In this document: positions 28,947 to 55,415 of the stretch, in pieces
How positions within the stretch are numbered: position 1 is the stretch's first letter
How the letters are laid out: the number at the start of each line of letters is the position of its first letter
NCBI GenBank assembly: GCA_964638945.1
Contig: CAZXCC010000001.1
Span: 47,945 to 111,944 of the forward strand
Source: an uncultured Veillonellaceae bacterium
GTDB lineage: Bacteria; Bacillota; Negativicutes; UBA1444
Reading direction: 5' to 3'
Length of the DNA stretch: 64,000 nt
The notes under the pieces: model-generated
What the model was told of the DNA's origin: nothing
The model's database searches: none
What the model saw: only the letters and a program-made list of their open reading frames with translations
Made by a program: the position numbers and the translations under genes

Positions 28947-30320
<1,374 letters not shown>

Positions 30321-32062: not shown

Positions 32063-32110
32063 CAAAAAAAGAGGCTGTGAAAAAACAAAAACCCATCATG
32101 GATTAATGCG

Positions 32111-32148
32111 AAAACCGGCGCCGTTATAGGCTGAAGCCGGTTTTTTCA
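32111..32148 (+). terminator. rho-independent terminator after the PAS sigma-54 activator gene
   Basis: AAACCGGC...GCCGGTTTTTTCATTT. Confidence 0.65.
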
Positions 32149-32154
32149 TTTGTT

Positions 32155-32170
32155 TGGCATGGTTTGTGCA
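32155..32170 (+). promoter_or_regulatory. sigma-54 promoter TGGCAT-GGTTT-GTGCA about 30 nt upstream of the dehydrogenase operon start
   Basis: GG 32156-32157, GC 32168-32169 with canonical spacing; -12 element GTGCA has one mismatch from TTGCA. Confidence 0.55.
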
Positions 32171-32201
32171 ATTTAGTTTGAAAGGGTTGGAGGTGTGTAA
32201 G

Positions 32202-32507
32202 GTGCGTGTAAATCAACATCCCATATTGGAATTTCCGGTGCGGGAAACAGTGACGTTTTATTTTAACGGAACAGAGTTGCTGGGTTTTGCCGATGAACCC
32301 ATTGCTGCGGCGTTGCATGCGGCTGGAATTCGGACCTTGCGTCATAGCTCGCGGTATCACCGTCCGCGCGGGCTTTTCTGTGCTATCGGCAATTGCTCGT
32401 CTTGCCTGATGACCGTGGATGGTGTGCCGAACGTGCGGGTTTGCGTGGAACCGCTGCGGGCCGGCATGCGGGTGGAGACGCAGGAAGGAAAGGGACGTCT
32501 GATATGA
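32202..32507 (+). CDS. 2Fe-2S subunit (HcnA / sarcosine oxidase alpha N-terminal-like) of a multi-subunit amino acid dehydrogenase
   Basis: Cys motif CAIGNCSSCLMTVDG...VCVEP; GTG start after GGAGG. Confidence 0.6.
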   Translation: MRVNQHPILEFPVRETVTFYFNGTELLGFADEPIAAALHAAGIRTLRHSSRYHRPRGLFCAIGNCSSCLMTVDGVPNVRVCVEPLRAGMRVETQEGKGRLI

Positions 32508-33592
32508 AAGAACCGGATATCGTTGTTGTCGGCGCCGGCCCTGCCGGGTTGATGGCAGCAAAATATGCTGCAGAAATGGGCGCATCCGTTCTTCTTCTCG
32601 AAAGGTCTGCGGATTTGGGCGGTCAACTGGTGAAACAGACTCACAAGTTTTTTGGGTCCCGGGCAGAATTTGCCGGGGAACGGGGCTTTGAAATCGCTCA
32701 CAAGCTGATGGAACAGGTAACAGGACAGCCTCATATTACGGTATGGAAAAATGCAACAGCGCTCGGAGTGTATCCGGATGGAGTCATGACAGTGAAAAAG
32801 GATGAAAGGTTTCGTGTCATCAAACCTCGCAGAATCATTGTGACGACCGGAGCATCCGAGAAGACACTGTCTTTTCCCAATAACGACCTGCCTGGAATCT
32901 ACGGAGCGGGTGCAGTCCAGACCTTGATGAATGTGTATGGCGTGTTGCCTGCAAAACGGGTTGTGATGGTCGGAGCCGGAAATATCGGAGTTATAGTGGC
33001 GTATCAACTGCTGCAGGCAGGTGTGGAAGTGGCTGCAGTGATTGAAGCGGCGCCGCGGATCGGTGGCTATTGGGTACATGCGTCAAAGATCCAACGCTGC
33101 GGCGTTCCAATTTTGACCGGGCATACCATTAAACAGGCCCATGGAGAAAACCAACTGGCAGGAGTCACAATCTGCCGGCTTGACGAAAAATGGGCCATGA
33201 TACCGGGAACGGAACGATATCTGGATGTGGACGGCCTGTGTATAGCGGTGGGACTCAGTCCTCTGACTGAACTTTTGTGGCAGGCGGGATGCAAAATGGA
33301 ATTCGTGCCGGAATTGGGCGGATATGTGCCCTGGCGCGATGCGGAGTTGCGGACAACTCAGCGCAATGTTTTCGTGGCAGGTGATGTCGCAGGTGTGGAA
33401 GAAGCGTCCGCAGCGATGGTGGAAGGAAAACTGGCCGGTCTTGCAGCGGCATTTTCCCTGCACTATCAAGCTGAGAATTTTGCTGCTGAATTTCACGAAG
33501 CCAAAACCCAATTGAACTCGCTGCGGTCCGGCCCTGTTAGCGCCAAGGTTTGCAAAGGCCTGTGTAAAGTGATGTTGGGGGAGGCGGTTTGA
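32504..33592 (+). CDS. FAD/NAD(P)-binding oxidoreductase subunit (HcnB / PDH1 alpha-like)
   Basis: IVVVGAGPAGLMAAKYAAEMG dinucleotide motif and second Rossmann VVMVGAGNIG; ATGA overlap. Confidence 0.65.
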   Translation: MKEPDIVVVGAGPAGLMAAKYAAEMGASVLLLERSADLGGQLVKQTHKFFGSRAEFAGERGFEIAHKLMEQVTGQPHITVWKNATALGVYPDGVMTVKKDERFRVIKPRRIIVTTGASEKTLSFPNNDLPGIYGAGAVQTLMNVYGVLPAKRVVMVGAGNIGVIVAYQLLQAGVEVAAVIEAAPRIGGYWVHASKIQRCGVPILTGHTIKQAHGENQLAGVTICRLDEKWAMIPGTERYLDVDGLCIAVGLSPLTELLWQAGCKMEFVPELGGYVPWRDAELRTTQRNVFVAGDVAGVEEASAAMVEGKLAGLAAAFSLHYQAENFAAEFHEAKTQLNSLRSGPVSAKVCKGLCKVMLGEAV

Positions 33593-33593
33593 T

Positions 33594-34088
33594 ATGCTGG
33601 ATATAGACGGAATTCCTTCTCATTCGGACCTTGCAGCAGTCACTCCGAAGACCGATAGAATGATAGAGGGACCGGTGGCTGTAATCGAATGTTTTCAGGA
33701 AATACCCTGCAATCCTTGCGCAGATGCCTGTCCACAAGGCGCGATAGTCATTCCGGCCAATATCAGCGCCCGTCCTCAATTTGACGAATCAAAATGCAAT
33801 GGATGCGGAATCTGTGTGACGCGTTGCCCGGGACTCGCAATCTTTGTCGTAGATCTTTCCTTGGGGGAAAATGAGGCACTGCTCAAAATCCCTTTTGAAT
33901 TTTGCCCATTGCCGGAGAAGGAAGAAATGGTGGAAACCTTGGACAGAAGTGGGAAGCCCGTTGGAAAGGGTCGAGTGGTTCGTGTGCAAATCCAAGCCAA
34001 CAAGACAACCGTTCTGTGGCTGGCCGTGCCACGGCAAGAAGCGATGGTGGTGCGAAATATACGCCGCAGAAAGGAGGAGACAGAATGA
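33594..34088 (+). CDS. 4Fe-4S ferredoxin-domain subunit
   Basis: CNPCADACP and CNGCGICVTRCP motifs. Confidence 0.55.
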   Translation: MLDIDGIPSHSDLAAVTPKTDRMIEGPVAVIECFQEIPCNPCADACPQGAIVIPANISARPQFDESKCNGCGICVTRCPGLAIFVVDLSLGENEALLKIPFEFCPLPEKEEMVETLDRSGKPVGKGRVVRVQIQANKTTVLWLAVPRQEAMVVRNIRRRKEETE

Positions 34089-34360
34089 ACGACGACATCA
34101 TCATTTGCCGGTGTGAGGACATTACGTTGTCGGAAATCACAGACTGCATAGAAAATGGCGACCGTTCAACGGAAGAGGTCAAACGTTCCTGCCGCTGCGG
34201 AATGGGCCCCTGCCAGGGCCGCACATGCATGCCGCTGGTGGCTCAGGAGTTGGCAAAAGCGACAGGAAAGAATGTGGGAGAAGTCAGTCTTCCCACTTTC
34301 CGCCAGCCTGTAGCGTCGATCAAGCTGGGAGCCTTGGCCGGGGGTGACGGGGATGAGTAA
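34085..34360 (+). CDS. BFD-like [2Fe-2S]-binding small subunit
   Basis: CRCEDIT...CRCGMGPCQGRTC motif; ATG after AAAGGAGGAG, ATGA overlap with upstream gene (the ORF track shows a longer N-terminal extension from 33902). Confidence 0.55.
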   Translation: MNDDIIICRCEDITLSEITDCIENGDRSTEEVKRSCRCGMGPCQGRTCMPLVAQELAKATGKNVGEVSLPTFRQPVASIKLGALAGGDGDE

Positions 34361-35501
34361 AACTGCGGATGTAGTTGTCATTGGCGGTGGAATCATAGGC
34401 TGCTCTACGGCGTACAACTTGGCACGGCTCGGCGCCGGCAGGGTGGTGCTTGTGGAACGTGGTTATCTTGCGAGTGGGGCGACTGGACGTTGCGGCGCCG
34501 GTATGCGAATGCAATGGGGAACGGAGACCAATTGTCTGTTATCTCGTGAGAGTACCCGGATGCTGGAACAATTGCCGGAAATTCTTGATGTGGATATCGA
34601 TATAGAATTAAAACAGGGCGGATATCTGCTTTTGGCCTATACGGAAAAAATGGCCGAGCAATTCAAAAAAAACCTCGTTTTGCAGGCGAAACACGGCATC
34701 CCTTCCTACTGGGTCACACCGGCGCAGGCGAAAGAAATCGTGCCGCATCTAAACACAGAGGGATTGCTTGGCGCAACTTTTTGCCCCAAAGATGGTCACT
34801 GCAATCCTTTTAAAGCAACGGCCGCTTATGCCAAAGCCGCAAGACGGCTGGGGGTGGAGATTCTGACGCATATGGAAGTGACCGGTATCGAGGAGGAAGG
34901 CTGTCGCATTAAAGCAGTGAAAACCAATCAGGGCGAAATCGTTACACCCAAAGTAGTCGTCGCTGCCGGCGGATATACCAAACAACTCGGGCTTATGGTG
35001 GGGGCGGAAATTCCTGTTTATCCGGAGCGTCACGAGATTTTGGTGACAGAACCGGTGGAACCGATGCAGGAGTCGATGGTTATGAGTTTTCATCATAATC
35101 TATATTGCCAGCAGAGTCCACACGGCAGCTTTATCATGGGAATTGGACATCCGGATTTGCCGGAGAGTTTTGATATCCGTTCCAGTTGGCAGTTTTTGCG
35201 TGAGATGGCCGAGAGACTCATCAAAATACTGCCGCCATTGGCTGGACTGAATGTTGTGCGTCAATGGGCCGGACTATATGATATGTCGCCGGATCGTCAG
35301 CCAATACTTGGACCGGCAGGAGATGTGGAAGGATTTCATGTTGCCGCAGGGTTCAGCGGACATGGCTTTATGATCGCTCCGATCACGGGACAGATTGTCG
35401 CGGAACAACTTTTGGGACTCCCCACAACATTGCCTGTCGGCATGCTGGATGCGGGAAGGTTCCGCCGTGGAGACTTGTTTATCGAGCCATCCGTTGTATA
35501 A
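34344..35501 (+). CDS. FAD-dependent amino acid dehydrogenase/oxidase catalytic subunit (DadA/HcnC/PDH1 beta-like)
   Basis: VVVIGGGIIGCSTAYNLAR FAD motif; 385 aa. Confidence 0.7.
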   Translation: MTGMSKTADVVVIGGGIIGCSTAYNLARLGAGRVVLVERGYLASGATGRCGAGMRMQWGTETNCLLSRESTRMLEQLPEILDVDIDIELKQGGYLLLAYTEKMAEQFKKNLVLQAKHGIPSYWVTPAQAKEIVPHLNTEGLLGATFCPKDGHCNPFKATAAYAKAARRLGVEILTHMEVTGIEEEGCRIKAVKTNQGEIVTPKVVVAAGGYTKQLGLMVGAEIPVYPERHEILVTEPVEPMQESMVMSFHHNLYCQQSPHGSFIMGIGHPDLPESFDIRSSWQFLREMAERLIKILPPLAGLNVVRQWAGLYDMSPDRQPILGPAGDVEGFHVAAGFSGHGFMIAPITGQIVAEQLLGLPTTLPVGMLDAGRFRRGDLFIEPSVV

Positions 35502-35528
35502 ATAGAAAAATATAGGGGGAATAATCTT

Positions 35529-37076
35529 ATGTTGACAGAATATCGCAATGAACCGTTCACAAATTTTTCCCTGCCGGAGAACAAGGCTGCGATGGAGGCC
35601 GCACTCGCTCTGGTTGCATCGCAAAAAGGCCGTCACTACCCACTCCGGATTAACGGAGCTTCTGTGGATACGGAGGCCAAAATTACATCGGTCAACCCGT
35701 CCTGTATCAAGGAGGTCGTTGGAACGGTTGCGAGGGCAAACAGTGAACTTGCCGAAAAAGCGGTGCAGGCGGCAGTGACGGCATTCAAAAGCTGGAAACA
35801 GGTTGAGCCGGAAACACGTGCGAGGTTGTTGTTCAAAGCGGCTGCAATTTTACGCCGCCGCAAATTTGAATACTCTGCCTGGTTGGTGGCGGAGGCCGGA
35901 AAGAATTGGGCGGAAGCGGATGCTGACACAGCGGAAGCGATCGATTTCATGGAGTATTATGGGCGCGAAATGCTGCGTTATGCGGAAGGCATGACGGTGA
36001 CGTCCTATCCGGGAGAACAGAATGAGTGTTTTTATATTCCCTTGGGTGTTGGCGTCGTGATTCCGCCATGGAATTTCCCACTGGCCATTTTGGCAGGGAT
36101 GACGGCCGCTGCTGTTGTTACAGGAAATACTGTCATTATGAAACCGGCAAGCAGTACGCCGGTGATTGCCGCGAAACTTATGGAGCTGTTTGAAGAAGCC
36201 GGTGTGCCGGCAGGTGTAATAAATTACCTGCCTGGAAGTGGAGGCAGTATCGGTGACTTTCTTGTAACGCACCCACAGGTTCGTTTTATTAATTTCACCG
36301 GATCGAAGGAAGTCGGCCTGCGAATCAACAAACTTGCGGCTGATGTAGCGCCGGGACAAATCTGGATCAAACGCGTGGTTGCGGAGATGGGCGGCAAAGA
36401 TGCCATTATTGTCGACGAAGAAGCTGATCTGGAGGAGGCGGCTGCAGGCATCGTGACATCGGCTTTCGGTTTTCAGGGGCAAAAATGTTCAGCCTGTTCG
36501 CGTGCGATTGTGGTAAAAAGCGTATATGAAGAACTGGTGGCAAAAGTCGCAGCAAAGGCCAAAGCTCTTCGTGTGGGTCCGGCAGCGGAATTCGGCGTGA
36601 ATCTGGGTCCCGTTGTGGACGAAGGCGCTTATAAAAAAGTGCTTGAATATATTGAAATTGGCAAGAAAGAAGCCCGTCTGGTTGCTGGCGGAAACAAAGC
36701 GGGTGAGGAGGGGTGGTTCATTGAACCGACGGTGTTTGCAGATGCAGCGGCAAAGTCACGAATTGCGCAGGAAGAAATTTTTGGTCCGGTTGTTGCAATC
36801 ATTCCTGCCGATGATTTCGACGACGCACTGGATATTGCAAATGGTACGGAATATGGACTTACCGGCGCAGTCTACTCGAAAAATCGCGCAAAATTGGAGA
36901 AGGCCCGCCGTGAATTTCATGTCGGAAACCTCTATCTGAACCGGAAATGCACGGGAGCATTGGTTGGAGTACAGCCGTTTGGTGGATTCAACATGTCGGG
37001 TACAGATTCCAAAGCCGGTGGTGCAGATTATTTGCTTTTATTCCTTCAAGCGAAAGCAGTGGCGGAAAAATTGTAA
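35529..37076 (+). CDS. rocA: L-glutamate gamma-semialdehyde (1-pyrroline-5-carboxylate) dehydrogenase
   Basis: 515 aa aldehyde dehydrogenase with RocA/PutC-type N-terminus [10 protein letters not shown] and catalytic EMGGK / Cys region. Confidence 0.8.
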
Positions 37077-37094
37077 ATAATTTAAGAAAAACCC

Positions 37095-37123
37095 TTGAAA
37101 AAATAAATATCGAGTATTATAAT
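37095..37123 (+). promoter_or_regulatory. consensus sigma-A promoter TTGAAA - 17 nt - TATAAT driving a 216-nt untranslated leader ahead of the LivJ-like binding protein gene
   Basis: read directly. Confidence 0.55.
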
Positions 37124-37339
37124 CATCATCAAGACCTCTTGTAGTGGACAGATGGCTATAATTTCTCGAAAAGCAAAGAAGCTTTTTGGCTCAATACCGC
37201 CCTGGTATTTTGTCGAAAAGTTTCTTTTTTTCTTCAGCCAACTGCGGATTTGCGCAAATAGATGCGCTAAGTTGTATGAACTGAAGGGAGGCAGAAGTTT
37301 AGTCGTTTCGGGTATTTTAAAGTTTGAAAAAAGATTATT

Positions 37340-38536
37340 TTGGAGGGTGACAAGATGAGAAGAAATGGACTGTTCCTAGCACTTGTTCTTTTGGTTATCG
37401 GAATTTTTGCCGTTGCAGGATGTGGTGGCGGCAGCGCACCGGCAAAGCCTGCCGAATCGAAAGATATTAAAATCGGCGTGGTATATGAACTGACAGGAAA
37501 CACGGCATCCTTCGGCACAGCGGCAAATAACGGAACAAAACTTGCTTTTAAAGAAATCAATGCCGCTGGCGGAGTTCTGGGCAAACAGATCGCCATTGTC
37601 AGCGCGGACAACAAGGGAGAACCTTCTGAGTCAGCCAATGCAATGACAAAAGTAATCACTCAGGATAAAGTGGTTGCCGTAGTTGGTTTCACTACCAGTT
37701 CCAATGGGATTGCCGGCTCGGCTGTCAACGAAGCGAACAAGATTCCTTTCGTAGCAGCGGCTACAACCAATCCGAAAGTGACGGTGGATGAAGCGACAGG
37801 TAAGGCAAAACCATATACTTTCCGGGTTTGTTTTATCGACCCGTTTCAGGGGACGGTGGGCGCCAATTTCGTTCTGAAGGATCTGAAACTGAAAAAAGCT
37901 GTCGTTCTGATTGATAACTCCAGCGATTACAGCAAGGGACTGTCCAAGTTTTTTAAAGAGGCGTACACTAAGGGCGGTGGAACGATTCTCGGCGAAGAAG
38001 CTTATCTGCAAAAAGACAAGGACTTTAAAGCACTGTTAACCAAAATCAAAGGCCTGAACCCTGAAGTGATCTATCTGCCCGGTTATTATGAAGAAGCAGG
38101 CATGATCTCCAAACAGGCGCGTGAACTTGGCATTACCGTTCCCATCGTGGGCGGCGATGGCTGGGATTCTCCCAAATTGGTTGAAATCGGCACGGCTGCC
38201 GGTATGAACAACACATACTTCACCAATCACTATTCACCGGAAGATTCCAGTGCGGCTTCGAAAAAATTCGTCGACGCCTATAAGAAAGAATACGGTGTAA
38301 TGCCTGATGCGATGGCTGTTCTTGGCTATGATGCGGCATATGTCATGGCTGATGCGATCAAACGTGCTGGTGCAGCGGAACCGGCTAAGATTCAGGCCGC
38401 TTTGGTGGCAACGAAAGATTTTCCGGCTGTTACCGGCGCCACTACTCTGAATGATACCCATGATGCAGTGAAGAGTGCTGTTATCATCGAAATGAAAGAT
38501 GGCAAGATGGTTTATAAGACCACTGTCAAACCCTGA
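37340..38536 (+). CDS. ABC transporter substrate-binding lipoprotein, branched-chain amino acid (LivJ/Peripla_BP_6) family; orphan (no permease/ATPase adjacent)
   Basis: lipobox AVAGCGGGS; family-typical sequence; 398 aa. Confidence 0.75.
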   Translation: MEGDKMRRNGLFLALVLLVIGIFAVAGCGGGSAPAKPAESKDIKIGVVYELTGNTASFGTAANNGTKLAFKEINAAGGVLGKQIAIVSADNKGEPSESANAMTKVITQDKVVAVVGFTTSSNGIAGSAVNEANKIPFVAAATTNPKVTVDEATGKAKPYTFRVCFIDPFQGTVGANFVLKDLKLKKAVVLIDNSSDYSKGLSKFFKEAYTKGGGTILGEEAYLQKDKDFKALLTKIKGLNPEVIYLPGYYEEAGMISKQARELGITVPIVGGDGWDSPKLVEIGTAAGMNNTYFTNHYSPEDSSAASKKFVDAYKKEYGVMPDAMAVLGYDAAYVMADAIKRAGAAEPAKIQAALVATKDFPAVTGATTLNDTHDAVKSAVIIEMKDGKMVYKTTVKP

Positions 38537-38558
38537 TTTGTTTTCAACTTACGACAAA

Positions 38559-38608
38559 GGCAGGGAACCAGCCGGGTTTGGCTGGTTCCCTGCCTTTTCT
38601 GCTTTTGT
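38559..38608 (+). terminator. rho-independent terminator (15-bp stem GGCAGGGAACCAGCC / GGCTGGTTCCCTGCC plus T-run)
   Basis: read directly. Confidence 0.85.
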
Positions 38609-38747
38609 CCGCTCCACAATAGTTCACAAAGTTGTAACAAATATGCCATAGTTTTGTAACGACTGCCGTCTATACTCATAAGTGAGTTCCCGTCATTCTG
38701 CAATAGGCAGGAAAATGGAGTTGCATGAGGTGAATGGAGGTAGATTT

Positions 38748-39257
38748 GTGAACAACAGAGCACCAAAAAAAATCGTCTGTTCTTTGTTAATCGGATTGCT
38801 GCAGTTCGGTGGAGGGGCTTATGTCGTTGAAGCGGCAGCAAGGGAAGAGCAACGGACTCAGCTTGCGGCGCCTCAGGATCCGTCAAAATTCGATAGGGCT
38901 CAGCAAGAGCGCTACTGGCAGGAACGTCGACATCTGCAGGAACAGGAACTGAATGAACGTCGCCGGGAAGAAGCTCTACGGCATGAACAGGAACTAAGGC
39001 GGCGCGAACGGGAAGACGAACGGGAATGGAAGAATCGGCAATGGCTGGAGCACCAGCGGATTCAACAACGGAACGAAGAACGCGCACGCAGGCAATGGTG
39101 GGAAAATCAGCGCCACGAAGAGGCAATGCGGCGGTTGGAATATGAAAGTGATCGTGAATGGCATCGGCGGCAATGGCAGGAGAAACAGCGCCATGAAGAA
39201 GCAATGCGTGAAATAGAAATAGGCGTATTAGCCTTGGCGGTACTTCTCGGCAAATGA
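38748..39257 (+). CDS. secreted/anchored low-complexity protein: signal peptide, long Arg/Glu/Gln/Trp-rich repetitive helical region (QRHEEAMR repeats), C-terminal hydrophobic anchor
   Basis: GTG start 7 nt after GGAGG; internal near-identical 27-nt DNA repeats at about 39108 and 39184; the antisense ORF 38512..39204 is judged spurious. Confidence 0.5.
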   Translation: MNNRAPKKIVCSLLIGLLQFGGGAYVVEAAAREEQRTQLAAPQDPSKFDRAQQERYWQERRHLQEQELNERRREEALRHEQELRRREREDEREWKNRQWLEHQRIQQRNEERARRQWWENQRHEEAMRRLEYESDREWHRRQWQEKQRHEEAMREIEIGVLALAVLLGK

Positions 39258-39385
39258 ATAAAGTTGCGTGGGCAGCCCCGGATTGTACCGTGGCTGTTCT
39301 TTTTCACGAGCAAAGGAATAACTGCGGTTTTACAGAATAATCTTCCGTACAAGAGGTCATTTGTTCACAGGGAGATGGAACAGAG

Positions 39386-42253
39386 ATGGGCAAAGTAAAC
39401 CGACGGAATTTTTTGAAAGGATTGGGATGCGCGGCTGCAGTGGTGACCGCATGCAGTGTACCCGGAAAATATCTGCGCCCTGTGACTGGCGCAGCAGCGA
39501 ATACTTTCCACCGCATAAGCCGAGAAAGCGAATATGGACCGTGGGCGGCAGAGTTGTATCTAAATACGGCGAAATGGAATTCGGGGCAAACTGTTGAAGG
39601 GGAAACCGTTCTATATTTGCCTTTTGGGACTCGAGCGGCGATGGAAGCCGACGGCTTCATCCCGGAACGATGGATATGTCTTGTCACGGCTGAGCGGCTG
39701 TTCGATGCAAATGGGGATTTGCGTTTGATTAATGGGGTCGGATGCGCCACCTGTCTGACACCGGGAGGATTGGCCATCGAAGGCGGGGTGCAGGGTGCTT
39801 TGGGTTCTATGGGAGAGAAATCTTTTCGAGCCTATCTGGACGTGTATGTGGAAGCCAAACGTGCTGAGGCGCACGGGGATACCAATGTTGTTGAAACAGT
39901 AAGATTTCCATTCAAATATAAACTGGCTGAAGACATTCCGGCAGGAACAGTAAGGTTGCGTGTTGATTTTGGGATTGGCGAAAACAGGGCCGGACATGTC
40001 GGCCATAGGCATAGCCTCAACGGAGAAGGGTTTGCGCGACGGCAACGCGATGGCTGGTCCGGTTTCTTCTCGGCTCCGATACCAGTGAATATGGAGCCCG
40101 GGAAGAGGCGCATCCCTTGGGTGATTATGTCCCGATGGGGATCAAACGGGCAAAGGGGGATAGTTGCCGAGGAAGATAAAGGCAGATTTGCCTTGTCTCC
40201 CAGACATATTGCTCCTGCTGATCCAATTTTTCCTATGGAGGATTCGGGTGGGAGAAAGCAGGAATATGAGGTCATTCCTGACATACTGGCTTGGAAATCG
40301 GATAAACACCGTCAAATCGAATGGGCAAGCGAGGCGGGCTGGTTTTCTGCGGAGCTGCAGATGCCATCCGGAAAAAATCTGCAATTTGACAATCTGTCCC
40401 TCATTCCCGGTCTGGATGGAACGCTGGCTGTTTCCGATATGAAACGTTGCCGCTGGCGTCCGGAAGAATATGGTGAACATGTGCTGATACTAAGGGGTTA
40501 TTGTGTCGATACATGGGGAAACCATTATGATGGCGGGGGAACATATCGATTTTGGATAGCGGAACGCCTGACGATTGCTACAGCCACTTTTCTGGGTCTT
40601 GCTTTACAGGCCGGCCGGAACTATGGGGCTCCGATCGCCATGAATCCGGCTTTTGCTGGTGAAGTTTCCATTGAACTTCAATTGTATTCTGCATCAGAAA
40701 AACAACGGCGGAAGAATTTCCAATGTTCGGGGAAGAGCAATGAGAGCGGCGTTTTTGGTCCGGCGGAAGGATTGAAGCAATTTACTCTTGATGAACCAGG
40801 AGAGTATATTGCCAGGATCCGGGGAAAAGCCACGGATAAAAAAGGGCGTTTGTGGATGGCATCGTTGACTCATGCCGGGGTCGTGGTTCCTCCGGATACA
40901 ACAATTGAAGCGCGGGGCAAAAAGATTAAAATTGGACGAGCCTATGCACTGCGCGGCGAAACACATTCCGAGGGGTATGTTGAAAAAGGATTGCCGCCGT
41001 TGCCGGCAAATGGGAAGTACTCAAGGGCTGACCTGGCGAGATTCCGGTTTCTTGACCATATCAACTATCCCTGGTTTCCGCTTGACGTGCTTCTTGTCGC
41101 GAGTGAAGGGCAAGGCGCCAACAAGATTGAACCGGTATTAACGTACGTGCGAAAAGGAGAAACGGAAGATTTAAAGCGCGGTACATTGGGAATCGGGTAC
41201 TCCGAACTGCAGTTCCCGCAATGCGAGGGCGGCTGGGACCCCTTCACCCACCCTGAAAAAATAAGGCAAAAAGGCGGATATTGGTACGCAGCGGCACCGA
41301 GGCCAGGATTTATGTCCAGATTTATGGTGGCGACCAATGGCGTATTCGCGCCATACTGGCCTACAAGCAACACCAATTTCGGCGGCCAGGCTGGCGCCTC
41401 GGCAAATGGGGATATGCCTGGTGATATCTATCGTCTGCTCGGCGGTGTCGTTGTGCCGGAAAAAAACGGACCCCCCTCCTATGCCGGCTATTTGGCCAAC
41501 GCAGTCATTTTGCCTGCCGGATCAGGAAACAACCGCATCATATCTCCTGGACTGGAAGATTTGCCAGGACCTGACGGGAAACAGGGACGTTTTTTTCTTG
41601 TTGCGGTTCGTCCGGGAACGGTTTATGGCGCAGACGCCAGATTCACGCCTTTTTTGCAGATTGACCCGGTCGTGCAGGCGCAGGTTCGCTATGAACTGAT
41701 TTCGCCAGCCGGAAAGATTTATAGAGCAGAAGGCATTGGTAACATGGAGGGTTATTTTTTTGGCAGAGAAACCTGGCTGCTCAATGAACCCGGTGTCTGG
41801 ACGTACAGGATACAGGCGGAATTTGACGGAAAGCCCGGACGTATGCCCGGATTGCCGTCAACAGGCGGATGGCTTTTTGTTACTGAAAAGCGGAACGCAA
41901 TGAATGCGGCTAAACTTGATTTGGGAGTGCCTGACAAGTTGCCGTTTGACCCGGCAAAAGGGTTCAAGGTGCAGGGGATTACGACAGGACAGAGCGTGTT
42001 TCTCGCTGCAGTAGTGCCGGGATGTGTAGTGGGTCAATGGGAGATTCCTGTGCGGACAGGCCGGTTTGAATGGCAGTTTGATCCGGGATTCATTCATGAA
42101 AGGGTTCCCGCCTATGATATCAAGCATAGCGCTTCGGGGCGCGCGCAACTCGGGCGAATCGTGCATTTGACATATTTTACACGAACCCTTACCGGTTCAT
42201 GGGAATGGGCGCGAATCATCGTGCGCGGTCCGGTGGCTTTCAACGGAACCTGA
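39386..42253 (+). CDS. large (955 aa) Tat-exported protein of unknown function
   Basis: twin-arginine signal NRRNFLKGLGCAAAVVTA; no catalytic motif recognised. Confidence 0.65.
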   Translation: MGKVNRRNFLKGLGCAAAVVTACSVPGKYLRPVTGAAANTFHRISRESEYGPWAAELYLNTAKWNSGQTVEGETVLYLPFGTRAAMEADGFIPERWICLVTAERLFDANGDLRLINGVGCATCLTPGGLAIEGGVQGALGSMGEKSFRAYLDVYVEAKRAEAHGDTNVVETVRFPFKYKLAEDIPAGTVRLRVDFGIGENRAGHVGHRHSLNGEGFARRQRDGWSGFFSAPIPVNMEPGKRRIPWVIMSRWGSNGQRGIVAEEDKGRFALSPRHIAPADPIFPMEDSGGRKQEYEVIPDILAWKSDKHRQIEWASEAGWFSAELQMPSGKNLQFDNLSLIPGLDGTLAVSDMKRCRWRPEEYGEHVLILRGYCVDTWGNHYDGGGTYRFWIAERLTIATATFLGLALQAGRNYGAPIAMNPAFAGEVSIELQLYSASEKQRRKNFQCSGKSNESGVFGPAEGLKQFTLDEPGEYIARIRGKATDKKGRLWMASLTHAGVVVPPDTTIEARGKKIKIGRAYALRGETHSEGYVEKGLPPLPANGKYSRADLARFRFLDHINYPWFPLDVLLVASEGQGANKIEPVLTYVRKGETEDLKRGTLGIGYSELQFPQCEGGWDPFTHPEKIRQKGGYWYAAAPRPGFMSRFMVATNGVFAPYWPTSNTNFGGQAGASANGDMPGDIYRLLGGVVVPEKNGPPSYAGYLANAVILPAGSGNNRIISPGLEDLPGPDGKQGRFFLVAVRPGTVYGADARFTPFLQIDPVVQAQVRYELISPAGKIYRAEGIGNMEGYFFGRETWLLNEPGVWTYRIQAEFDGKPGRMPGLPSTGGWLFVTEKRNAMNAAKLDLGVPDKLPFDPAKGFKVQGITTGQSVFLAAVVPGCVVGQWEIPVRTGRFEWQFDPGFIHERVPAYDIKHSASGRAQLGRIVHLTYFTRTLTGSWEWARIIVRGPVAFNGT

Positions 42254-42389
42254 GATTGAATCGGAATTGAATATTGAATGTAGTGCAGGAGAAGCAGGCC
42301 TTGATGTGAAATAATTAATAAGAATCGATTTGTACATGGACATGGTTGTCATTTTCGAACGCAAATGCTGGAAAACCGGAGGCGAAACT

Positions 42390-45248
42390 GTGTTTCTTCG
42401 TCTGCGAAAGACTGCAAAAAAAAGTGGCTGGGGCAGCCTGCTTTTGCTGGCTTCGATTTTTTGCGGTCTCATTTTGACAGGGCATCTATCTTTACTGCTT
42501 ACCCCTGTGGCTGCCGGAGAAACTCAGCAACGGATAATCCGCCTTGCTGACGATAAGGGGTATCCACCCTATATTTTCACTAATTCCGCCGGGCAGCCGG
42601 ATGGATTTGAAATGGATTTGTTCCGGCTGATCGAGCAGGATACCGGCCTGAAGTTCGAATGGACGCTGACCGAATTTGACAATGCGGTGAATATGCTGCG
42701 CAACGGCCAGGCAGAAATCGTTCCAGGAATGAATGTGACAGAAGACCGAAAAATGGAATTTGCTTTTTCACGCCCTTATTTGCAGGATAAGGGTGTGCTT
42801 TTTGTACCTGCGGACAGTTATCACATAAGCAGGCTGGACGATCTGGTGGGACGGCGGGTTGGAGTGCAGCAGGGGGAGGTGTCGGAGCAGTATCTGCGGC
42901 AAAACAAGAAACAACTTTCTCTGTATCTTTTTCCCAGTCAACGGGAACTTTTGCAGGCTGTGGTTGAGCGAAAAATTGATGCAGCAATCTGCAATTACTA
43001 TTCGGGACATTATTTCCTACATCAGCTGCAATTGGAGGAAAAAGTAAAGACGATTGGCGAGCCGATTTTTACCCATCCTTTCGCAGTGGCAGCTAGCAAA
43101 GATAATAGAGATGTGCTGGCAATTATAGATGCTTCGATTGAAAAATTGCAGTCAGGCGGCAGACTGGATGCCCTACAGGAAAAATGGTTTGGCGGGCAAA
43201 ATCTGATTTTGGGAATGAGCCGGCAAAAGCTTGGCTTATATGCGGCGGTTGCAACAGCTGGAATCATTGCCGTTGCTTGCGTAACCCTGTTGTTTATCCT
43301 CTTCCTGCGACGGAAAATTGTACAGGCTACCTCCGAGATTGCAGGACAGAGGGATGAACTTCACAAGGCGTATCAGGAAATGGCGGCGCAAAATGAAGAA
43401 CTGCTGGCGCAGGATGAACTGCTGAGTTTTCAGAACCGCACCCTGCAACTGCAGGAGCAAAGATTGACAGAGCGGAATCGAATTTTGGAAGCGTTGCAGG
43501 ATACGACTATCGAGATGCTGCAAATAGACGATGTGGATGAATTGTTTGCGCGCATCCTCAAGAGGGCGGCTCAGCTGGCTGGAACCGAAAGCGCAAAAAT
43601 CGACACATGGGATGCCGCAGGGTCGATGCTTCAGGCACGGGTTGCAATGGGATACGCCGGAAATATTGGACATATTCCGGGGAAAGGCCTTACGGGAGAG
43701 GTTATCCAACACGGAAAAACATTGCTGATAGAAGATTACCAGTCATGGGAAAAGCGTCTCCACGGGCCGGAAACGGACGTGATCCTTTCGGCGCTGGGCG
43801 TGCCGCTCTTGATTCGTGGCAATGTCCGGGGACTTCTCATAATGGACCACACAGAGCAAGGAAAAAGTTTTTCTCCGGAGCAGATTGCGGCAGTGGAGCA
43901 GTTTGCACATATTGCCGCAATTGTCCTCGCAAACGCCGATGACCGAGAAGCTTTGAAAACTATGGCGTATCACGATGCGTTGACGACTCTGCCAAACAGG
44001 CCGGCTCTCATGGAACGTCTCGTGCAGGAACTGGACAGGGCTATACGGGGGGAAACCTCCGGGGCAATCCTGTTGCTGGATCTCGATAATTTCAAGATGG
44101 TGAATGATTCGCTGGGGCATGCCTGCGGCGACTTGCTTTTGCAGGAACTGGGCAGGCGTTTGCATGAAACCGCTGCGGAGGCCGATATGGTTGCCAGAAG
44201 CGGTGGTGACGAGTTTGTGATTTTGTATGGCAATGTGGCTGATGACGGAGTGATTGAGGAATTTGCCGGAAGGATTATGCGATCTGTTTCCCAGCCTTAC
44301 GAGGTATGCGGCCAGCGTATGTACTGTACCATGAGCATGGGAATTGTACGGTATCCGGCTGATGGGACCGTTGCGGAAGAATTGTTCCGGGATGCGGATA
44401 CGGTTCTGCACGAAGTAAAAAGCGCCGGAAAAAATTCCTGGCGCTTCTTTGACTCGGCCATGAGGGACACGGTGTATCGCCGGATGCAGCTTGAGCACAG
44501 CCTGCACCAGGCAATGGGAAATAATGAACTGTTCGTTGTCTATCAGCCGGTTGTGGAGTTGCAGACACATCGTATCGTTGGATTTGAAACGCTGTTGCGT
44601 TGGAATAATCCGCAATACGGAAACGTCTCCCCCGTTTCATTCATCCCGATTGCTGAAGAAACCGGCTGGATTGTTTCCATCGGTCAGTGGGTCATTCGCC
44701 AGGCATGTCATTTTATGCAGAGACTGCGCCAGGATGGAAATGAAGATTTATTCGTGGCAGTCAATCTTTCGCCAAGGCAGTTGCGTCAGAGTGATTTTGT
44801 TGCGATGGTCCAGTCCATATTGCAGGAAACAGCGGTACCTCCTGAATTGCTCGAATTGGAAATCACGGAAACTCTGTTTATGGAATCAGTGGAACCGAAT
44901 CTGCAAAAAATCCGTGAACTGCGCAGTATTGGGGTCAGATTGGCTCTGGACGATTTCGGAACGGGATATTCTTCGTTGACCTATCTGAAGAACTTGCCGA
45001 TCAATACATTGAAAATTGATAAAACATTTGTGGATGATATCGTCGGGAGTTCCGTCAATGCAGCGATTCTTGGCTCGATTATTCAAATGGCTCATGGACT
45101 GGAGCTGACAGTAGTTGCCGAAGGCGTTGAAACGGAAGGGCAACGGAACGAGTTGATCCGACAGGGTTGCGACTTGATGCAGGGATATCTGTTCAGCAAA
45201 CCGGTGTTGGAGAATGAACTTTGCCGGATGTTGACAAAGAAAGCATAG
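42390..45248 (+). CDS. c-di-GMP turnover signalling protein: signal/TM - periplasmic SBP type 3 (PBPb) domain - TM - coiled coil - GAF - GGDEF - EAL
   Basis: GGDEF motif RSGGDEFVIL, EAL-domain motifs ETLLRWN and DDFGTGYSSL; GTG start 7 nt after GGAGG (the ORF-track TTG at 42330 is the alternative). Confidence 0.85.
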   Translation: MFLRLRKTAKKSGWGSLLLLASIFCGLILTGHLSLLLTPVAAGETQQRIIRLADDKGYPPYIFTNSAGQPDGFEMDLFRLIEQDTGLKFEWTLTEFDNAVNMLRNGQAEIVPGMNVTEDRKMEFAFSRPYLQDKGVLFVPADSYHISRLDDLVGRRVGVQQGEVSEQYLRQNKKQLSLYLFPSQRELLQAVVERKIDAAICNYYSGHYFLHQLQLEEKVKTIGEPIFTHPFAVAASKDNRDVLAIIDASIEKLQSGGRLDALQEKWFGGQNLILGMSRQKLGLYAAVATAGIIAVACVTLLFILFLRRKIVQATSEIAGQRDELHKAYQEMAAQNEELLAQDELLSFQNRTLQLQEQRLTERNRILEALQDTTIEMLQIDDVDELFARILKRAAQLAGTESAKIDTWDAAGSMLQARVAMGYAGNIGHIPGKGLTGEVIQHGKTLLIEDYQSWEKRLHGPETDVILSALGVPLLIRGNVRGLLIMDHTEQGKSFSPEQIAAVEQFAHIAAIVLANADDREALKTMAYHDALTTLPNRPALMERLVQELDRAIRGETSGAILLLDLDNFKMVNDSLGHACGDLLLQELGRRLHETAAEADMVARSGGDEFVILYGNVADDGVIEEFAGRIMRSVSQPYEVCGQRMYCTMSMGIVRYPADGTVAEELFRDADTVLHEVKSAGKNSWRFFDSAMRDTVYRRMQLEHSLHQAMGNNELFVVYQPVVELQTHRIVGFETLLRWNNPQYGNVSPVSFIPIAEETGWIVSIGQWVIRQACHFMQRLRQDGNEDLFVAVNLSPRQLRQSDFVAMVQSILQETAVPPELLELEITETLFMESVEPNLQKIRELRSIGVRLALDDFGTGYSSLTYLKNLPINTLKIDKTFVDDIVGSSVNAAILGSIIQMAHGLELTVVAEGVETEGQRNELIRQGCDLMQGYLFSKPVLENELCRMLTKKA

Positions 45249-45299: not shown

Positions 45300-46532
45300 T
45301 TACTCTTCTTCATCCAGGATTTCCTGAAGCAGGGGAAAGGGAGAGAGCGCCCTGCGCAGGATGCCCATAAGGGCAGCAATGGCAACGCCATAATTCACGA
45401 TGGGAACACCGGCCTGCTGTACCTCTACGATCCGGGCAAGCATTTCCCGGCGATTTGTCATGCATGCGCCGCAGTGAAGCACCAGTTTGTATTCGCTCAG
45501 ATTTTTCGGGAAGGTCAGGCCGCTGGAGTGGTCGACAGTCAGTTCTCCTCCGACATGCTGGCGCAACCAGCGAGGGATTTTAACAGTGCCGATGTCATCT
45601 TCTACACGGTGATGCGTGCAGGACTCGCTGATCAGTACCTTGTCGCCGGGTTTCAGATGATCGATGGCACGTGCGCCACGCACCATGGTTTCCAGATCCC
45701 CCTTGTAGCGGGCAAACAGAATGGAAAAAGAAGTGAGCAGCACATCAGGCGGGGTATCCGCATCGGCCTTGAGAAAAACCTGTGAATCTGTGATTACGAT
45801 TCTGGGTTTGCGGTTCAGGCTGGCGATACATTCCTTCAATTCCCGCTCTTTGACGGTATAGGCCATGGCGTCATGGTCGAGGATATCGCGGATCATCTGT
45901 ACCTGCGGCAGAATCAAACGCCCTGCGGGAGCTGCCAGATCGATGGGCACTACCAGGACAGCAACATCGCCCGGTTGCAGCAGGTCCCCCACGATGGTCT
46001 GATTGTCCCAACGAGCCGGCGCATGACGGACCATGGCGATTTTCAGATCACCAATGCCGCGTCGTTCGCTGGCGCTGACTGCGACTGCTGCAGCGGCTCC
46101 CAGTTCCGATTTGGCGTTTTCCAGAGCCTCCGCTGCAGGAGTTTCCAAGTCGGTTTTGTTAAATACAAGGAGAAAGGGAATGTTTTGCAGCCGGCACTTT
46201 TCCGCAAGTTCTTTCTCCGGCGCACCTATTCCGAGCGTGGCATCGGTCACCAGCAGCACCAGGTCGGATTTGCGCAGTACCTCCAGAGATTTTTCGATGC
46301 GCAGCTTCCCCAGCTCTCCGACATCGTCCAGACCTGCCGTGTCGATGACGACCACGGGTCCGAGGGGCAGGATTTCCATGGACTTATAGACTGGATCCGT
46401 GGTGGTGCCGGCAACCGAAGAGACGATAGCGAGCGATTGATTGGTCAGTGCGTTGATGAGACTGGACTTGCCGGCGTTTCGGCGTCCAAAGAGGGATATA
46501 TGCAGGCGGTTGCCGCGTGGCGTTTCATTCAT
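45300..46532 (-). CDS. hydF: [FeFe]-hydrogenase H-cluster maturation GTPase
   Basis: N-terminal GTPase G1 GRRNAGKSSLINAL, DTAG; C-terminal Fe-S motifs CTHH and HCGAC characteristic of HydF; 410 aa. Confidence 0.7.
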   Translation of the reverse strand: MNETPRGNRLHISLFGRRNAGKSSLINALTNQSLAIVSSVAGTTTDPVYKSMEILPLGPVVVIDTAGLDDVGELGKLRIEKSLEVLRKSDLVLLVTDATLGIGAPEKELAEKCRLQNIPFLLVFNKTDLETPAAEALENAKSELGAAAAVAVSASERRGIGDLKIAMVRHAPARWDNQTIVGDLLQPGDVAVLVVPIDLAAPAGRLILPQVQMIRDILDHDAMAYTVKERELKECIASLNRKPRIVITDSQVFLKADADTPPDVLLTSFSILFARYKGDLETMVRGARAIDHLKPGDKVLISESCTHHRVEDDIGTVKIPRWLRQHVGGELTVDHSSGLTFPKNLSEYKLVLHCGACMTNRREMLARIVEVQQAGVPIVNYGVAIAALMGILRRALSPFPLLQEILDEEE

Positions 46533-47967
46533 GTCGCGCCTCCTTTGTTTTGGCTGGAGCCGGTTTTTTTATCATGCCCGGACGGGTCAGCATTTCCGGC
46601 CTCAATAGAATTTCCACCTCTTCTTCTGTAAAGAGGTGGCTTGCAACCAAGATTTGCTTGACGGAGGTATCATCGTGCAGAGCCTGCTTGGCGACGACGG
46701 CAGCCCGGTCATAGCCGATTAGCGGTGCAAGAGCCGTTGCAAGAGCTACGCTATGCTCCAGATGAGACAGGCATTTCGCAGGACTGGCGTCGATCCCTGC
46801 AATACAGCGGTCTGCAAATAACTTCATCGCTTTTGTGAGTTCTTCCATCGCCGGCAGCAAGTTGGCGGCAATGAGCGGCAAAAATGCGTTGAGCTCCAGC
46901 TGACCTCCCTGCGCCGCCAGTGTGATAGCCAAGTCGCGTGCTATGGTCTGATATGCAACCTGGGCTAATAATTCGGGCATGACCGGGTTGACTTTGCCTG
47001 GCATGATGGAAGAGCCCGCCTGCAATTCCGGCAGATGGATTTCGGCGAAGCCTCCTTTTGGCCCGGAGGAAAGGAGCCGCAGATCATTGCTGATTTTGAT
47101 CAGAGTTGCGGCACAGGCCTTGAGCAGACCGGAAACCTCAACAAAAACATCGGCATTTTGCGTGGTGTCGATCATGTTTTCATCCCTGGCAAGGCCGATG
47201 CCGGTCAAGGCCCGTAAACGTTCGACAACACCGAAAACATATTTTCTTTCGGCATTCAGGCCGGTACCGACGGCAGTGCCGCCGAGGTTGACCTCGCGCA
47301 AGCGTTCTTCCACTTTATAAAGCCGCCATCGATCACGGGCAACTGCCTCGGCCCAGGCGGAAAATTCCTGTCCGAGGGTGATCGGTACGGCATCCTGCAT
47401 TTCCGTACGTCCCAATTTAAGGATACTTGCAAACTCCGCTTCCTTTTTCTGCAATGCTCCCTGCAGTTGCGCGCAGGCTTCCGAAAGGGGTTGGAGCAGC
47501 CGGATGGCCGCAACGCGCAAAGCTGTGGGATACACGTCATTGGTCGATTGCGACAAATTGACGTGGTCCAGGGGGTGAACCACACGATAGTCTCCTTTTT
47601 GGCCGCCAAGCAGTTCGATGGCCCGGTTGGCTACGACCTCATTGACGTTCATGTTGGTTGAAGTGCCGGCACCTCCCTGCAAGGCGTCTACCGGAAACTG
47701 ATCTGAAAACCTTCCTTCCGACACTTCGGCGGCAGCCTGGAATATCGCCGAACCCAATCGGGGCTCCAGAATGCCGAGAGACATGTTCATTTCCACCGCA
47801 GCCTGTTTGACTGTGGCAATGGCGCGAATGAGCTCCGGGTGAACCGCTTGTCCGGAAACTGAGAAATTTTCCAGTGCCCGCACGGTATGGATGCCATAAT
47901 AGGCTTCGGACGGTACTTGCTTTTCGCCGAGAAAATCGTGTTCTGTCCGGTACATGACGACCTCCAT
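46525..47967 (-). CDS. aspA: aspartate ammonia-lyase (fumarase/aspartase class II family)
   Basis: GSSIMPGKVNP signature; DQFPVDALQGGAGTSTNMNVNEV matches aspartase rather than FumC. Confidence 0.8.
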   Translation of the reverse strand: MEVVMYRTEHDFLGEKQVPSEAYYGIHTVRALENFSVSGQAVHPELIRAIATVKQAAVEMNMSLGILEPRLGSAIFQAAAEVSEGRFSDQFPVDALQGGAGTSTNMNVNEVVANRAIELLGGQKGDYRVVHPLDHVNLSQSTNDVYPTALRVAAIRLLQPLSEACAQLQGALQKKEAEFASILKLGRTEMQDAVPITLGQEFSAWAEAVARDRWRLYKVEERLREVNLGGTAVGTGLNAERKYVFGVVERLRALTGIGLARDENMIDTTQNADVFVEVSGLLKACAATLIKISNDLRLLSSGPKGGFAEIHLPELQAGSSIMPGKVNPVMPELLAQVAYQTIARDLAITLAAQGGQLELNAFLPLIAANLLPAMEELTKAMKLFADRCIAGIDASPAKCLSHLEHSVALATALAPLIGYDRAAVVAKQALHDDTSVKQILVASHLFTEEEVEILLRPEMLTRPGMIKKPAPAKTKEARHE

Positions 47968-47971
47968 ATTT

Positions 47972-48226
47972 TTATTTGCTGCTTAAGGCGGAACGCACCT
48001 GGACTCCGTTTATATTGCCAAGTTGCCCTGTCAGGGACCCAATCTCGTCGGTTGTCCCCTGCACAATCAGGGTAATGACCGATATGCCTGTTTCGTTATG
48101 TTGAATGCGGGGAATACCCATCCTCCCGGCAATGATTTGTCCATGGCGGCTGAGAATGGCATTGATCTCGGGAGCGCGAAGCGGGTCCTCAATCACAATG
48201 CCGATAAAACCAAGTCTTTGTTGCAT
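47972..48226 (-). CDS. small ACT-domain protein of the TM1266 type (putative iron-only hydrogenase system regulator)
   Basis: 84 aa, MQQRLGFIGIVIEDP...; AAGGGGGT RBS; family call from memory. Confidence 0.5.
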   Translation of the reverse strand: MQQRLGFIGIVIEDPLRAPEINAILSRHGQIIAGRMGIPRIQHNETGISVITLIVQGTTDEIGSLTGQLGNINGVQVRSALSSK

Positions 48227-48523
48227 GGAAACCCCCTTGAAAAAATGAGAAGCCTTGCGCAAACCGCGCAAGGCTGATGAACCTCGTGACACAGGAAACA
48301 AGCGTCACTGCGATCATCCCTTGGCGTCAGGCAGCGCCCTGTTCCTCAGGAATCCAGATTTTGTCTTCATTATAAACTTGGGGTCCGATAAAATCAAGTT
48401 GCGAAAAAGAATGAAAATCCGTATCCGCCTTGCAGAGGCGACCAGAATTTTTTCGGAGCAGCATTATCATTGTTCACGCAGGAGGAGTTTGAACAAATGT
48501 GCAGAAAGCCTTAAAAAGAAGAA

Positions 48524-50533: not shown

Positions 50534-50771
50534 CGATTGAAAATGAAGCGAATCTTGGGAGTTGCGATTCCTACCCCGGTTCCCTCCATGGGCGCCGGGG
50601 CTTTTACTTTTCTATCAGAAAATATAACTATCTGGGACATGAGAAACCCACGGCTTCCCCGGCGCAGAGGTTCGGCGCAAGCCATGTTTTCTCAGGCTCA
50701 AGATGAAAACAGCAGGATAAATTCCTCTGGAAGACGAAAACGGGGATGAGGGATTGGCAAGGAGTGAAGTG

Positions 50772-51569: not shown

Positions 51570-51652
51570 GAATGCCGGATGACTTTGACAGTAAGGGAGC
51601 GCTCTGTGATATAATGAGAACGGATTTTTGAGAGATAGGGCGGAATGACCTT

Positions 51653-52075: not shown

Positions 52076-52077
52076 GA

Positions 52078-55032: not shown

Positions 55033-55101
55033 TAAAACATAGCCCTCCTTCTTGAAATCGAAATCGACAGGCGAACTTTCTTGTCATATAAATAAAAAGA
55101 A

Positions 55102-55349: not shown

Positions 55350-55415
55350 CAATACCAAACAAGTCACAAGAGGGATCCGTAGGAAAGAAGCATGGTGTGG
55401 AAAGGGAGAGAGATT

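Follow-up and report, generated by a model that had tools for sequence, protein, structure and literature searches.

Bacterial alpha-2-macroglobulins (A2Ms) are inner-membrane-anchored periplasmic lipoproteins, and their hallmarks are a helical thioester domain (TED) with CLEQ, a disordered bait region, a CUB domain, around 13 domains in total and PBP1c as a partner; ECAM comprises 13 domains over ~1650 amino acids (aa) (PMC4498604). The lipobox consensus has been quoted as [LVI][ASTVI][GAS]C (PMC12462473), and the combination of a twin-arginine translocation (Tat) signal with a lipobox was analysed experimentally in haloarchaea (PMC2945643). In this work we have analysed a 955-aa protein, referred to as the target, that is encoded on the forward strand of a 64-kb stretch of contig CAZXCC010000001.1; the whole stretch is called the window and its first letter is position 1. 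The overall picture that we tentatively favour, with a little less than even confidence, is that of a Tat-exported, lipid-anchored and cofactor-free envelope protein that binds or processes polymers. Its localisation and architecture are much firmer than its function, which we infer.

Export signals and family membership

The open reading frame (ORF) proposed in the initial annotation was recovered with exactly its coordinates and length on the + strand (Table 1). An identical protein (P0001) was called on a metagenome contig (L001), which together with ~70 near-full-length homologues indicated that the ORF is a real gene. An in-frame TAA at 39338-39340 precedes the ORF by 45 nucleotides (nt) and, by direct reading, neither ATG, GTG nor TTG occurs between this stop codon and position 39386; the arginine pair of the target, whose N-terminus is MGKVNRRNFLKGLGCAAAVVTACSVPG, is therefore N-terminal unless a downstream start is used. 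The choice of the ATG is supported by the homologue P0002 (67% identical), which starts MGKINRRTFLQG. The clear N-terminal twin-arginine signal described in the initial annotation thus held. NRRNFLK (residues 5-11) matches the Tat consensus S/T-R-R-x-F-L-K, the target scored 19.3 bits with the NCBIfam model TIGR01409 (cutoff 16.7), and the twin-arginine motif is retained in close homologues. After a 12-residue hydrophobic stretch (FLKGLGCAAAVV) the residues V20-T21-A22-C23 form a putative lipobox, and a PROSITE-type lipoprotein rule matches the target at Cys23. From these motifs, the target is probably a Tat-exported lipoprotein. The lipobox had been overlooked in the initial annotation.

Searches placed the target in a widespread family of soil and sediment bacteria and archaea that is unnamed and unstudied. 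A word-indexed search retrieved 76 relatives, about 70 of them aligning over ~95% of the query with 37-42% identity and E below 1e-160, and a HMMER profile search, exhaustive over 1.84 billion cluster representatives (clusters at 50% identity), gave 802 clusters at E ≤ 1e-3 and 391 at E ≤ 1e-30. Species-representative genomes contained 139 family loci, all in metagenome-assembled genomes (MAGs). The closest loci (63-64% identity) were labelled "uncultured Veillonellaceae" (Negativicutes), and further hosts were Acidobacteriota (Bryobacteraceae, Solibacter), Chloroflexota, Verrucomicrobia, Spirochaetota, delta-proteobacteria and Riflebacteria, along with Bathyarchaeia and Methanotrichaceae among the archaea and Omnitrophota in a distant branch; the family is present in >8 bacterial phyla plus these archaea. 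All source names were "hypothetical protein", both in the cluster look-up and when the profile search was repeated with the distant branch as seed. The family core carries no recorded Pfam domain, and full-text literature searches found no paper on the family. Mean column identity over 56 members was 52%, and the invariant positions, of which there are many, are occupied by Gly, Pro, aromatic and charged residues. Membership in this family was a further aspect overlooked in the initial annotation.

The N-termini of 243 full-length members differed in their signals. A Tat-like arginine pair with a hydrophobic region appeared in 36 (~15%), 6 of them with a lipobox, whereas 41 presented a lipobox alone, 135 a plain hydrophobic N-terminus and 31 no signal, the starts of this last group being possibly miscalled; a lipobox was found in 47 members overall. 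These counts indicated that the family is extracytoplasmic and that Tat is a minority route. Paralogy was also observed. In two Acidobacteriota loci (L047 5797-9994 and L062 5794-10024) a second, partial family copy stands directly downstream of the first, and two separate copies per MAG occur in one genome each of Bryobacteraceae, Acidobacteria and Bathyarchaeota (pairs L017/L028, L030/L051, and L064/L067).

Beyond the Tat signal, no Pfam or NCBIfam model matched the target, even at E ≤ 10, and a comparison with PDB sequences, either with the single protein or with a family profile, gave no real match (the sole one was ribosomal protein L27, E 0.86). When 10 diverse homologues were searched with Pfam at E ≤ 5, only sub-threshold sandwich-type matches were obtained (Jacalin, P_proprotein, MG2, FlgD_ig). 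That no domain is recognisable by sequence, as the initial annotation had held, was therefore borne out. Pfam glycoside hydrolase, polysaccharide lyase and carbohydrate-binding module families were likewise absent at these thresholds, and Rfam returned nothing at threshold in the window. An interior LPSTG (823-827) was considered as a sortase signal and rejected, as it corresponds to the family motif MPGLPxxGG.

Predicted fold and conserved residues

An AlphaFold2 model built from a 56-sequence alignment presented a mean predicted local distance difference test score (pLDDT) of 87 and a predicted template modelling score (pTM) of 0.87, with pLDDT values <50 only in residues 1-37, that is, the signal and the tether. 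According to DSSP on this model the mature protein is almost all strands, the helices being 4-9 residues long. With high confidence, the mature part (~38-955) is thus predicted as a compact, near helix-free assembly of ~7-8 beta-sandwich-type domains, and the high pTM indicated a fixed arrangement of these domains rather than beads on a string. The initial annotation had expected, from the large size and the Trp and Gly richness of the protein (Trp 2.5%, Gly 12.4%), a beta-rich fold of the carbohydrate-active or propeller kind. The first part agrees with the model; a propeller was not seen: the beta-sandwiches of the model are stacked compactly, and sandwich arrays account for all fold matches. 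The structure-based annotation recommended there proved to be the right next step.

Most of the domains show no mutual relation in sequence. In a profile-profile comparison of eight segments the only clear relation was that between residues 394-503 and 763-840, which are homologous (hhalign probability 92%, E 7e-7), whereas the N-terminal part, the central region 504-762 and the C-terminal domain presented no sequence relation to other segments. Residues 305-393 are weakly related by profile to 763-840 (hhalign 31%) and in homologues recurrently gave a sub-threshold P_proprotein match. The sequences LDEPGEY (468-474) and LNEPGVW (799-805) we take, from what is known of Greek-key sandwiches, to be tyrosine-corner motifs with a structural role; E473/Y474 in the first of them are ~100% conserved. 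The N-terminal region contains a conserved, mostly coil segment at 99-137 (LVTAER..LTPGGLAIEGGVQG) in addition to E263/D264; its invariant residues are E103, R104, T122, T125, E132, G133 and G134, and T125, E263 and D264 are kept superfamily-wide. When residues 503-765 were modelled alone, from a 23-sequence sub-alignment, they did not fold (pLDDT 56), which is consistent with a dependence of this central region on the surrounding domains; the alignment was also shallower.

Table 1. Features of the target gene and protein, in window positions.
Feature	Position	Strand	Details	Basis
Shine-Dalgarno-like GGGAGA	39370..39375	+	Plausible ribosome-binding site, 10 nt upstream of the ATG	
Coding sequence	39386..42253	+	955 codons, ATG start; stop 42251-42253	ORF list
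Twin-arginine motif	39398..39418	+	N5-R6-R7-N8-F9-L10-K11	TIGR01409, Pfam TAT_signal, close homologues
Putative lipobox	39443..39454	+	V20-T21-A22-C23; predicted signal peptidase II site, Cys23 the lipidated first residue	Motif rule
Tether/linker	39455..39496	+	Residues 24-37, predicted disordered; length and sequence variable among homologues	pLDDT
N-terminal beta region	39497..40285	+	Residues 38-300, about two sandwich-like domains	DSSP, pLDDT 83-96
Beta-sandwich domain	40298..40564	+	Residues 305-393, ends in invariant GGGxYxFWIAxR	Family alignment, model
Beta-sandwich domain	40565..40894	+	Residues 394-503, LDEPGEY tyrosine corner	Model, motif scan
Central conserved region	40895..41671	+	Residues 504-762, irregular beta with long loops	Alignment, model
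Conserved Gly/Asn/Asp-rich loop	41336..41446	+	Residues 651-687	Model, conservation
Beta-sandwich domain	41672..41905	+	Residues 763-840, tyrosine-corner-like LNEPGVW	Model, hhalign, motif scan
C-terminal beta-sandwich domain	41906..42250	+	Residues 841-955	Model

In order to find the residues kept across the family, 144 full-length members were aligned to the family hidden Markov model (HMM), 67 of which were less than 30% identical to the target and constituted the distant set. The polar and aromatic residues present in at least 80% of the distant set were T125, E263, D264, D375, Y387, S437, N452, E473, Y474, D484, W490, D567, Y632, Y634, R639, Y657, W658, Q668, D676, D680, Y699, Y702, R717, N786 and D911. 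Most of the superfamily-wide polar residues lie in the central region (D567, Y632, Y634, R639, Y657, W658, Q668, D676, D680, Y699, Y702, and R717). The loop 651-687 (APYWPTSNTNFGGQAGASANGDMPGDIYRLLGG) displayed the lowest pLDDT of the core (62-79) yet holds the near-universal W658, Q668, D676 and D680, and it would be the best candidate for a functional or Ca2+-binding site. No His, Cys or Lys was conserved superfamily-wide (at least 80%) among the 144 members, and the sole conserved Ser, S437, lacks any His or Asp partner suggestive of a triad.

Insertion of a cofactor in the cytoplasm is the classical reason for the use of Tat, and a redox or metalloenzyme exported by this route with its cofactor in place would account for the clear Tat signal of the target; cytochrome c domains, moreover, occur in a few distant relatives. 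These domains are added modules outside the core, and most family members have no Tat motif but a lipobox or a plain hydrophobic N-terminus. The target contains only 16 His and 10 Cys, and no ligand set of the His/Cys/Met type is conserved. A motif scan found none of CxEQ, HExxH, CxxCH, GxSxG and DxDxDG in the target, whose single CxxC (C120/C123) and single HxH (207-209) are not conserved in the family, and no nucleotide-, FeS-, Mo-, Cu- or haem-binding Pfam model matched it. Since conserved His, Cys and Lys are lacking and cofactor motifs are either absent or not conserved, a redox or transition-metal cofactor is, on this comparison of sequences, very unlikely, and we consider a cofactor-bearing enzyme the least credible of the explanations, at the edge of what deserves attention. 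The initial annotation had pointed out that Tat substrates usually carry cofactors or are folded before export and had seen no redox-cofactor motif; the puzzle implied there dissolves when only 36 of the 243 members are Tat-like and no ligand residues are conserved. Tat would presumably be used for reasons of folding or of lineage habit and not of a cofactor.

Genomic context and proposed function

In the closest relative the gene arrangement around the target is kept, with neighbours 83-90% identical and the target 67%, and it is not kept in a 63% relative or in distant ones. The target thus evolves faster than its neighbours, as expected of an exposed protein. Upstream of it stand a sigma-54-regulated proline-catabolism cluster and a Peripla_BP_6 binding protein. 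A very strong terminator-like hairpin at 38556-38597 (+; 19-bp stem, 11 G-C pairs, T-rich tail) closes this upstream operon and argues that the target is transcribed separately. An operon link between the target and the proline-catabolism genes was rejected, given the terminator between them and a synteny limited to the closest relative.

At 30575-38536 (+) a PAS sigma-54 activator precedes the proline-catabolism genes, the Peripla_BP_6 gene included. These encode a heteromeric proline-dehydrogenase-like set (Fer2_4, Pyr_redox_2, Fer4, Fer2_BFD, and DAO) and an L-glutamate gamma-semialdehyde dehydrogenase (845 bits), and a glutamate dehydrogenase is encoded at 28965-30320. Between the terminator and the target, a 191-aa ORF (38682-39257, +) presents hydrophobic N- and C-terminal segments around ~140 residues of E/R/Q/W-rich repeats (REWxxRQW; QRHEEAMR twice). 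Neither Pfam nor NCBIfam gave a match to this ORF, which was also called on the identical metagenome contig but is absent from the syntenic 67% relative. The downstream gene (42330-45248, +) encodes an SBP_bac_3-GAF-GGDEF-EAL protein, the first domain being of the periplasmic amino-acid-binding type, which is only 66% identical in the syntenic relative as compared with 83-90% for the metabolic neighbours; its listed TTG start may be too far upstream, since a small hairpin (42426-42438) lies inside the predicted N-terminus. The window as a whole is an amino-acid-fermentation island. In its regions 514-25600 and 45300-63954 nearly all genes are on the + strand and the GC skew is positive throughout; the genes there include an aromatic/histidine ammonia-lyase, a second sigma-54 activator, a molybdopterin hydroxylase, B12-binding and MutL proteins (glutamate-mutase-associated), an aspartase/fumarase-type lyase, a HydF-like GTPase and a 2-oxoacid:ferredoxin oxidoreductase. 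A 996-aa ORF at 25729-28719 (+) weakly matches PEP-synthase/PigC-type ATP-grasp regions at residues ~440-660, the first ~430 residues and the C-terminal third having no NCBIfam match.

Neighbours across the family were compared by all-against-all BLAST clustering of the ORFs from 82 loci. The most frequent were a PdtaS/PdtaR pair (only in Chloroflexota), sulfatases (6), GFO/IDH/MocA proteins (6), sugar-type major facilitator superfamily (MFS) transporters (5) and TonB receptors (3), and HepII_C was adjacent in one locus. In a Chloroflexi MAG (L029 2851-7558) the end of the family gene (2851-5652) is shared with a sulfatase-family ORF (5642-7558) that has the same orientation, and in one relative (P0077) an N-terminal Phosphodiest/Sulfatase domain is fused to the family module; both observations point to a possible recurrent link to enzymes of the alkaline-phosphatase superfamily. 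Longer relatives add CarboxypepD_reg (14 of the 36 scanned), PKD, F5/8 type C, TIG, FG-GAP, PF06439 or cytochrome c domains, and one group carries a C-terminal FTP propeptide with an M4 thermolysin-like peptidase. This pattern of additions suggests that the ~900-aa module is the working core of secreted polymer-directed proteins, decorated in the larger relatives by small binding modules of the sort usual in secreted, polymer-active proteins. The carbohydrate-active role proposed in the initial annotation is still a guess, as no corresponding family matched and the hints in its favour (sulfatase, GFO/IDH/MocA and sugar-type MFS neighbours) come from at most 6 of the 82 loci.

According to the reading that we favour, the target would fold in the cytoplasm and cross the membrane through Tat, and Cys23 would be modified with diacylglyceryl before cleavage by signal peptidase II. 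The mature protein would then stand on a 14-residue tether at the outer face of the cytoplasmic membrane; for a diderm Negativicute, the host suggested by the closest homologues, this would mean the periplasm. There, with no redox or metal cofactor requiring His or Cys ligands, it may act as a rigid platform on which a polymer outside the cytoplasm (glycan or protein) is bound and possibly cleaved. As the site we propose a conserved acidic and aromatic surface centred on residues 504-762 (D567, Y632, Y634, R639, Y657, W658, Q668, D676, D680, and R717) together with E263/D264, possibly with Ca2+. From the ~40% identity across phyla and domains of life and the conserved acidic, aromatic and Arg residues in the loops of the modelled central region, we infer a role beyond that of a passive spacer or adhesin.

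Several observations weigh against this reading. As for the export signals, Pfam TAT_signal (PF10518) gave 17.6 bits (E = 0.0036), under its gathering score of 22.7, and the signal-region Cys is absent in the three closest homologues (P0002, P0003, and P0004; 63-67% identical), so that the lipobox of the target could be a chance match. As for the function, the target yielded neither a catalytic motif nor a binding pocket or ligand, the conserved acidic residues could be purely structural (Ca2+ sites, turn motifs), and several of the conserved "polar" positions belong to a tyrosine corner (E473/Y474) and are structural. No general conserved neighbour was found in the 82 loci (the best occurring in 6-8 of 82 and being partly lineage-specific), hence no pathway can be assigned. 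The hints are also split: the sulfatase, GFO/IDH/MocA and sugar-type MFS neighbours and the Phosphodiest/Sulfatase fusion point to glycan, whereas the M4-peptidase fusion and the amino-acid-fermentation island point to protein. The M4 fusions form one clade of 11 sequences, 68-91% identical, and were down-weighted as a functional clue since a single clade represents a single event.

An alternative is a purely structural envelope, surface-layer or adhesin protein, a stack of sandwiches stiffened by Ca2+ with neither specific ligand nor catalysis. The all-beta array architecture of the Ig/FN3/MG type, the position of conserved acids at turns and domain junctions (E263/D264, D375, D484, and Q758-x-D760-P761), as in Ca2+-rigidified arrays, the faster evolution with respect to the neighbours, and the lack of conserved His, Ser or Cys of a catalytic type are all consistent with such a role. 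Structural surface proteins, however, rarely hold ~40% identity across bacterial phyla and archaea over 900 residues, the model is compact, and its domains are mostly unrelated in sequence, unlike the tandem repeats of adhesins. Moreover, the target lacks SLH, LPXTG, PEP-CTERM and type IX secretion system (T9SS) sorting or anchoring domains and ends in ...RGPVAFNGT with no C-terminal sorting signal, and the patchy distribution with paralogues per genome resembles that of substrate-diversified families. We therefore regard a purely structural role as unlikely, while giving it appreciable weight.

A bolder extension of the polymer-directed reading is that the conserved ~900-aa all-beta module represents a new kind of extracellular enzyme that needs no cofactor, such as a new family of glycoside hydrolases, lyases or esterases, whose active site may be formed by D567, Y632/Y634, R639, W658, Q668, D676, D680 and R717 with E263/D264. 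We hold this to be doubtful, at about the level of the structural alternative. If true, it would imply a common environmental polymer attacked by bacteria of soil, sediment and digesters as well as by Bathyarchaeia and Methanotrichaceae.

The building blocks of the target are ordinary, namely Greek-key sandwiches behind a Tat/lipoprotein signal. For the family, with its arrangement of domains and its conserved central region, there is neither a name nor a Pfam or NCBIfam model, and no relative has been solved. If a specific activity or ligand were established, ~800 sequence clusters would be annotated at once and a fold arrangement without a solved representative would be added. The clusters come from Acidobacteriota, Anaerolineae, Verrucomicrobia and Bathyarchaeia, organisms that in soils, aquifers, sediments and digesters dominate the turnover of complex organic material. 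As regards the target genome the practical result is modest: an annotation as redox enzyme is inappropriate, and the Tat targeting of the protein should not be taken as evidence for a cofactor. This dark family merits a structure and a biochemical screen, and nothing yet indicates a surprising mechanism.

Comparison with known systems

When the model was compared with the PDB by Foldseek, the top 30 matches were of the A2M type (A2M, complement, TEP, CD109, and ECAM), with E-values from 1e-13 to 1e-9 and template modelling (TM) scores of only 0.08-0.17, and no global structural relative was found. In a control with a viral library, phage minor-tail/FN3-array proteins gave E-values from 1e-12 to 1e-9, the E-values and TM scores thus being the same as those of A2M. 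This equality indicated that the A2M signal is generic; the resemblance reflects FN3-like sandwiches arranged in series rather than any specific homology.

These matches raise the question of whether the target could act as an A2M-like protease trap or shield lacking the thioester, a membrane-anchored ring of macroglobulin-like (MG) domains that binds or cages proteases in the periplasm. Both the target and the A2M/complement superfamily (ECAM, SaA2M 4u48, C3/C4/C5, TEP1, and CD109) are large, extracytoplasmic and made of FN3-like (MG-type) sandwiches, and the bacterial members are likewise anchored to the inner membrane as periplasmic lipoproteins (PMC4498604). In addition, one homologue gave a sub-threshold MG2 match in Pfam (E 0.0023), a BsuPI protease-inhibitor gene stands nearby in one locus, and the clade fused to FTP and M4 modules would join the family to a protease, although that fusion is a single evolutionary event. 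The differences are more numerous. The target has no CxEQ thioester and no helical TED (the longest mature helices have 9 residues), no CUB domain and, in the model, no internal disordered bait-like region; no Pfam model of A2M, MG, CUB or TED matched above threshold. It contains ~8 domains in 955 aa as compared with the 13 domains and ~1650 aa of ECAM (PMC4498604), its global TM scores are low, and the PBP1c partner is missing, no transglycosylase or PBP gene being adjacent in the window or in the loci of relatives. With these differences and the equal scores of the phage arrays, a protease trap appears quite improbable, less so than a cofactor enzyme but clearly behind a structural role. What weight is left beside the favoured polymer-directed reading and its three rivals falls to something else.

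With the Tat-dependent lipoproteins of haloarchaea and actinobacteria the target shares a twin-arginine motif and a lipobox Cys after a hydrophobic region. This likeness is limited to the targeting signal and does not include the mature protein; furthermore, the host of the target is probably a Negativicute and its lipobox is not kept in the nearest homologues.

Proteins with Ig/FN3/PKD arrays (phage minor-tail/FN3 proteins, RTX/Lap adhesin repeats, and S-layer proteins) have in common with the target the serial Greek-key sandwiches, the tyrosine corner LxPGxY and a non-cytoplasmic location, along with Foldseek E-values equal to those of A2M. In contrast to such arrays, the domains of the target are mostly not mutual repeats, with 394-503 and 763-840 as the only detectably related pair, and its fold is compact, with a 260-residue irregular and highly conserved central region. 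As compared with adhesins, the conservation of the target family across phyla is far above the usual level.

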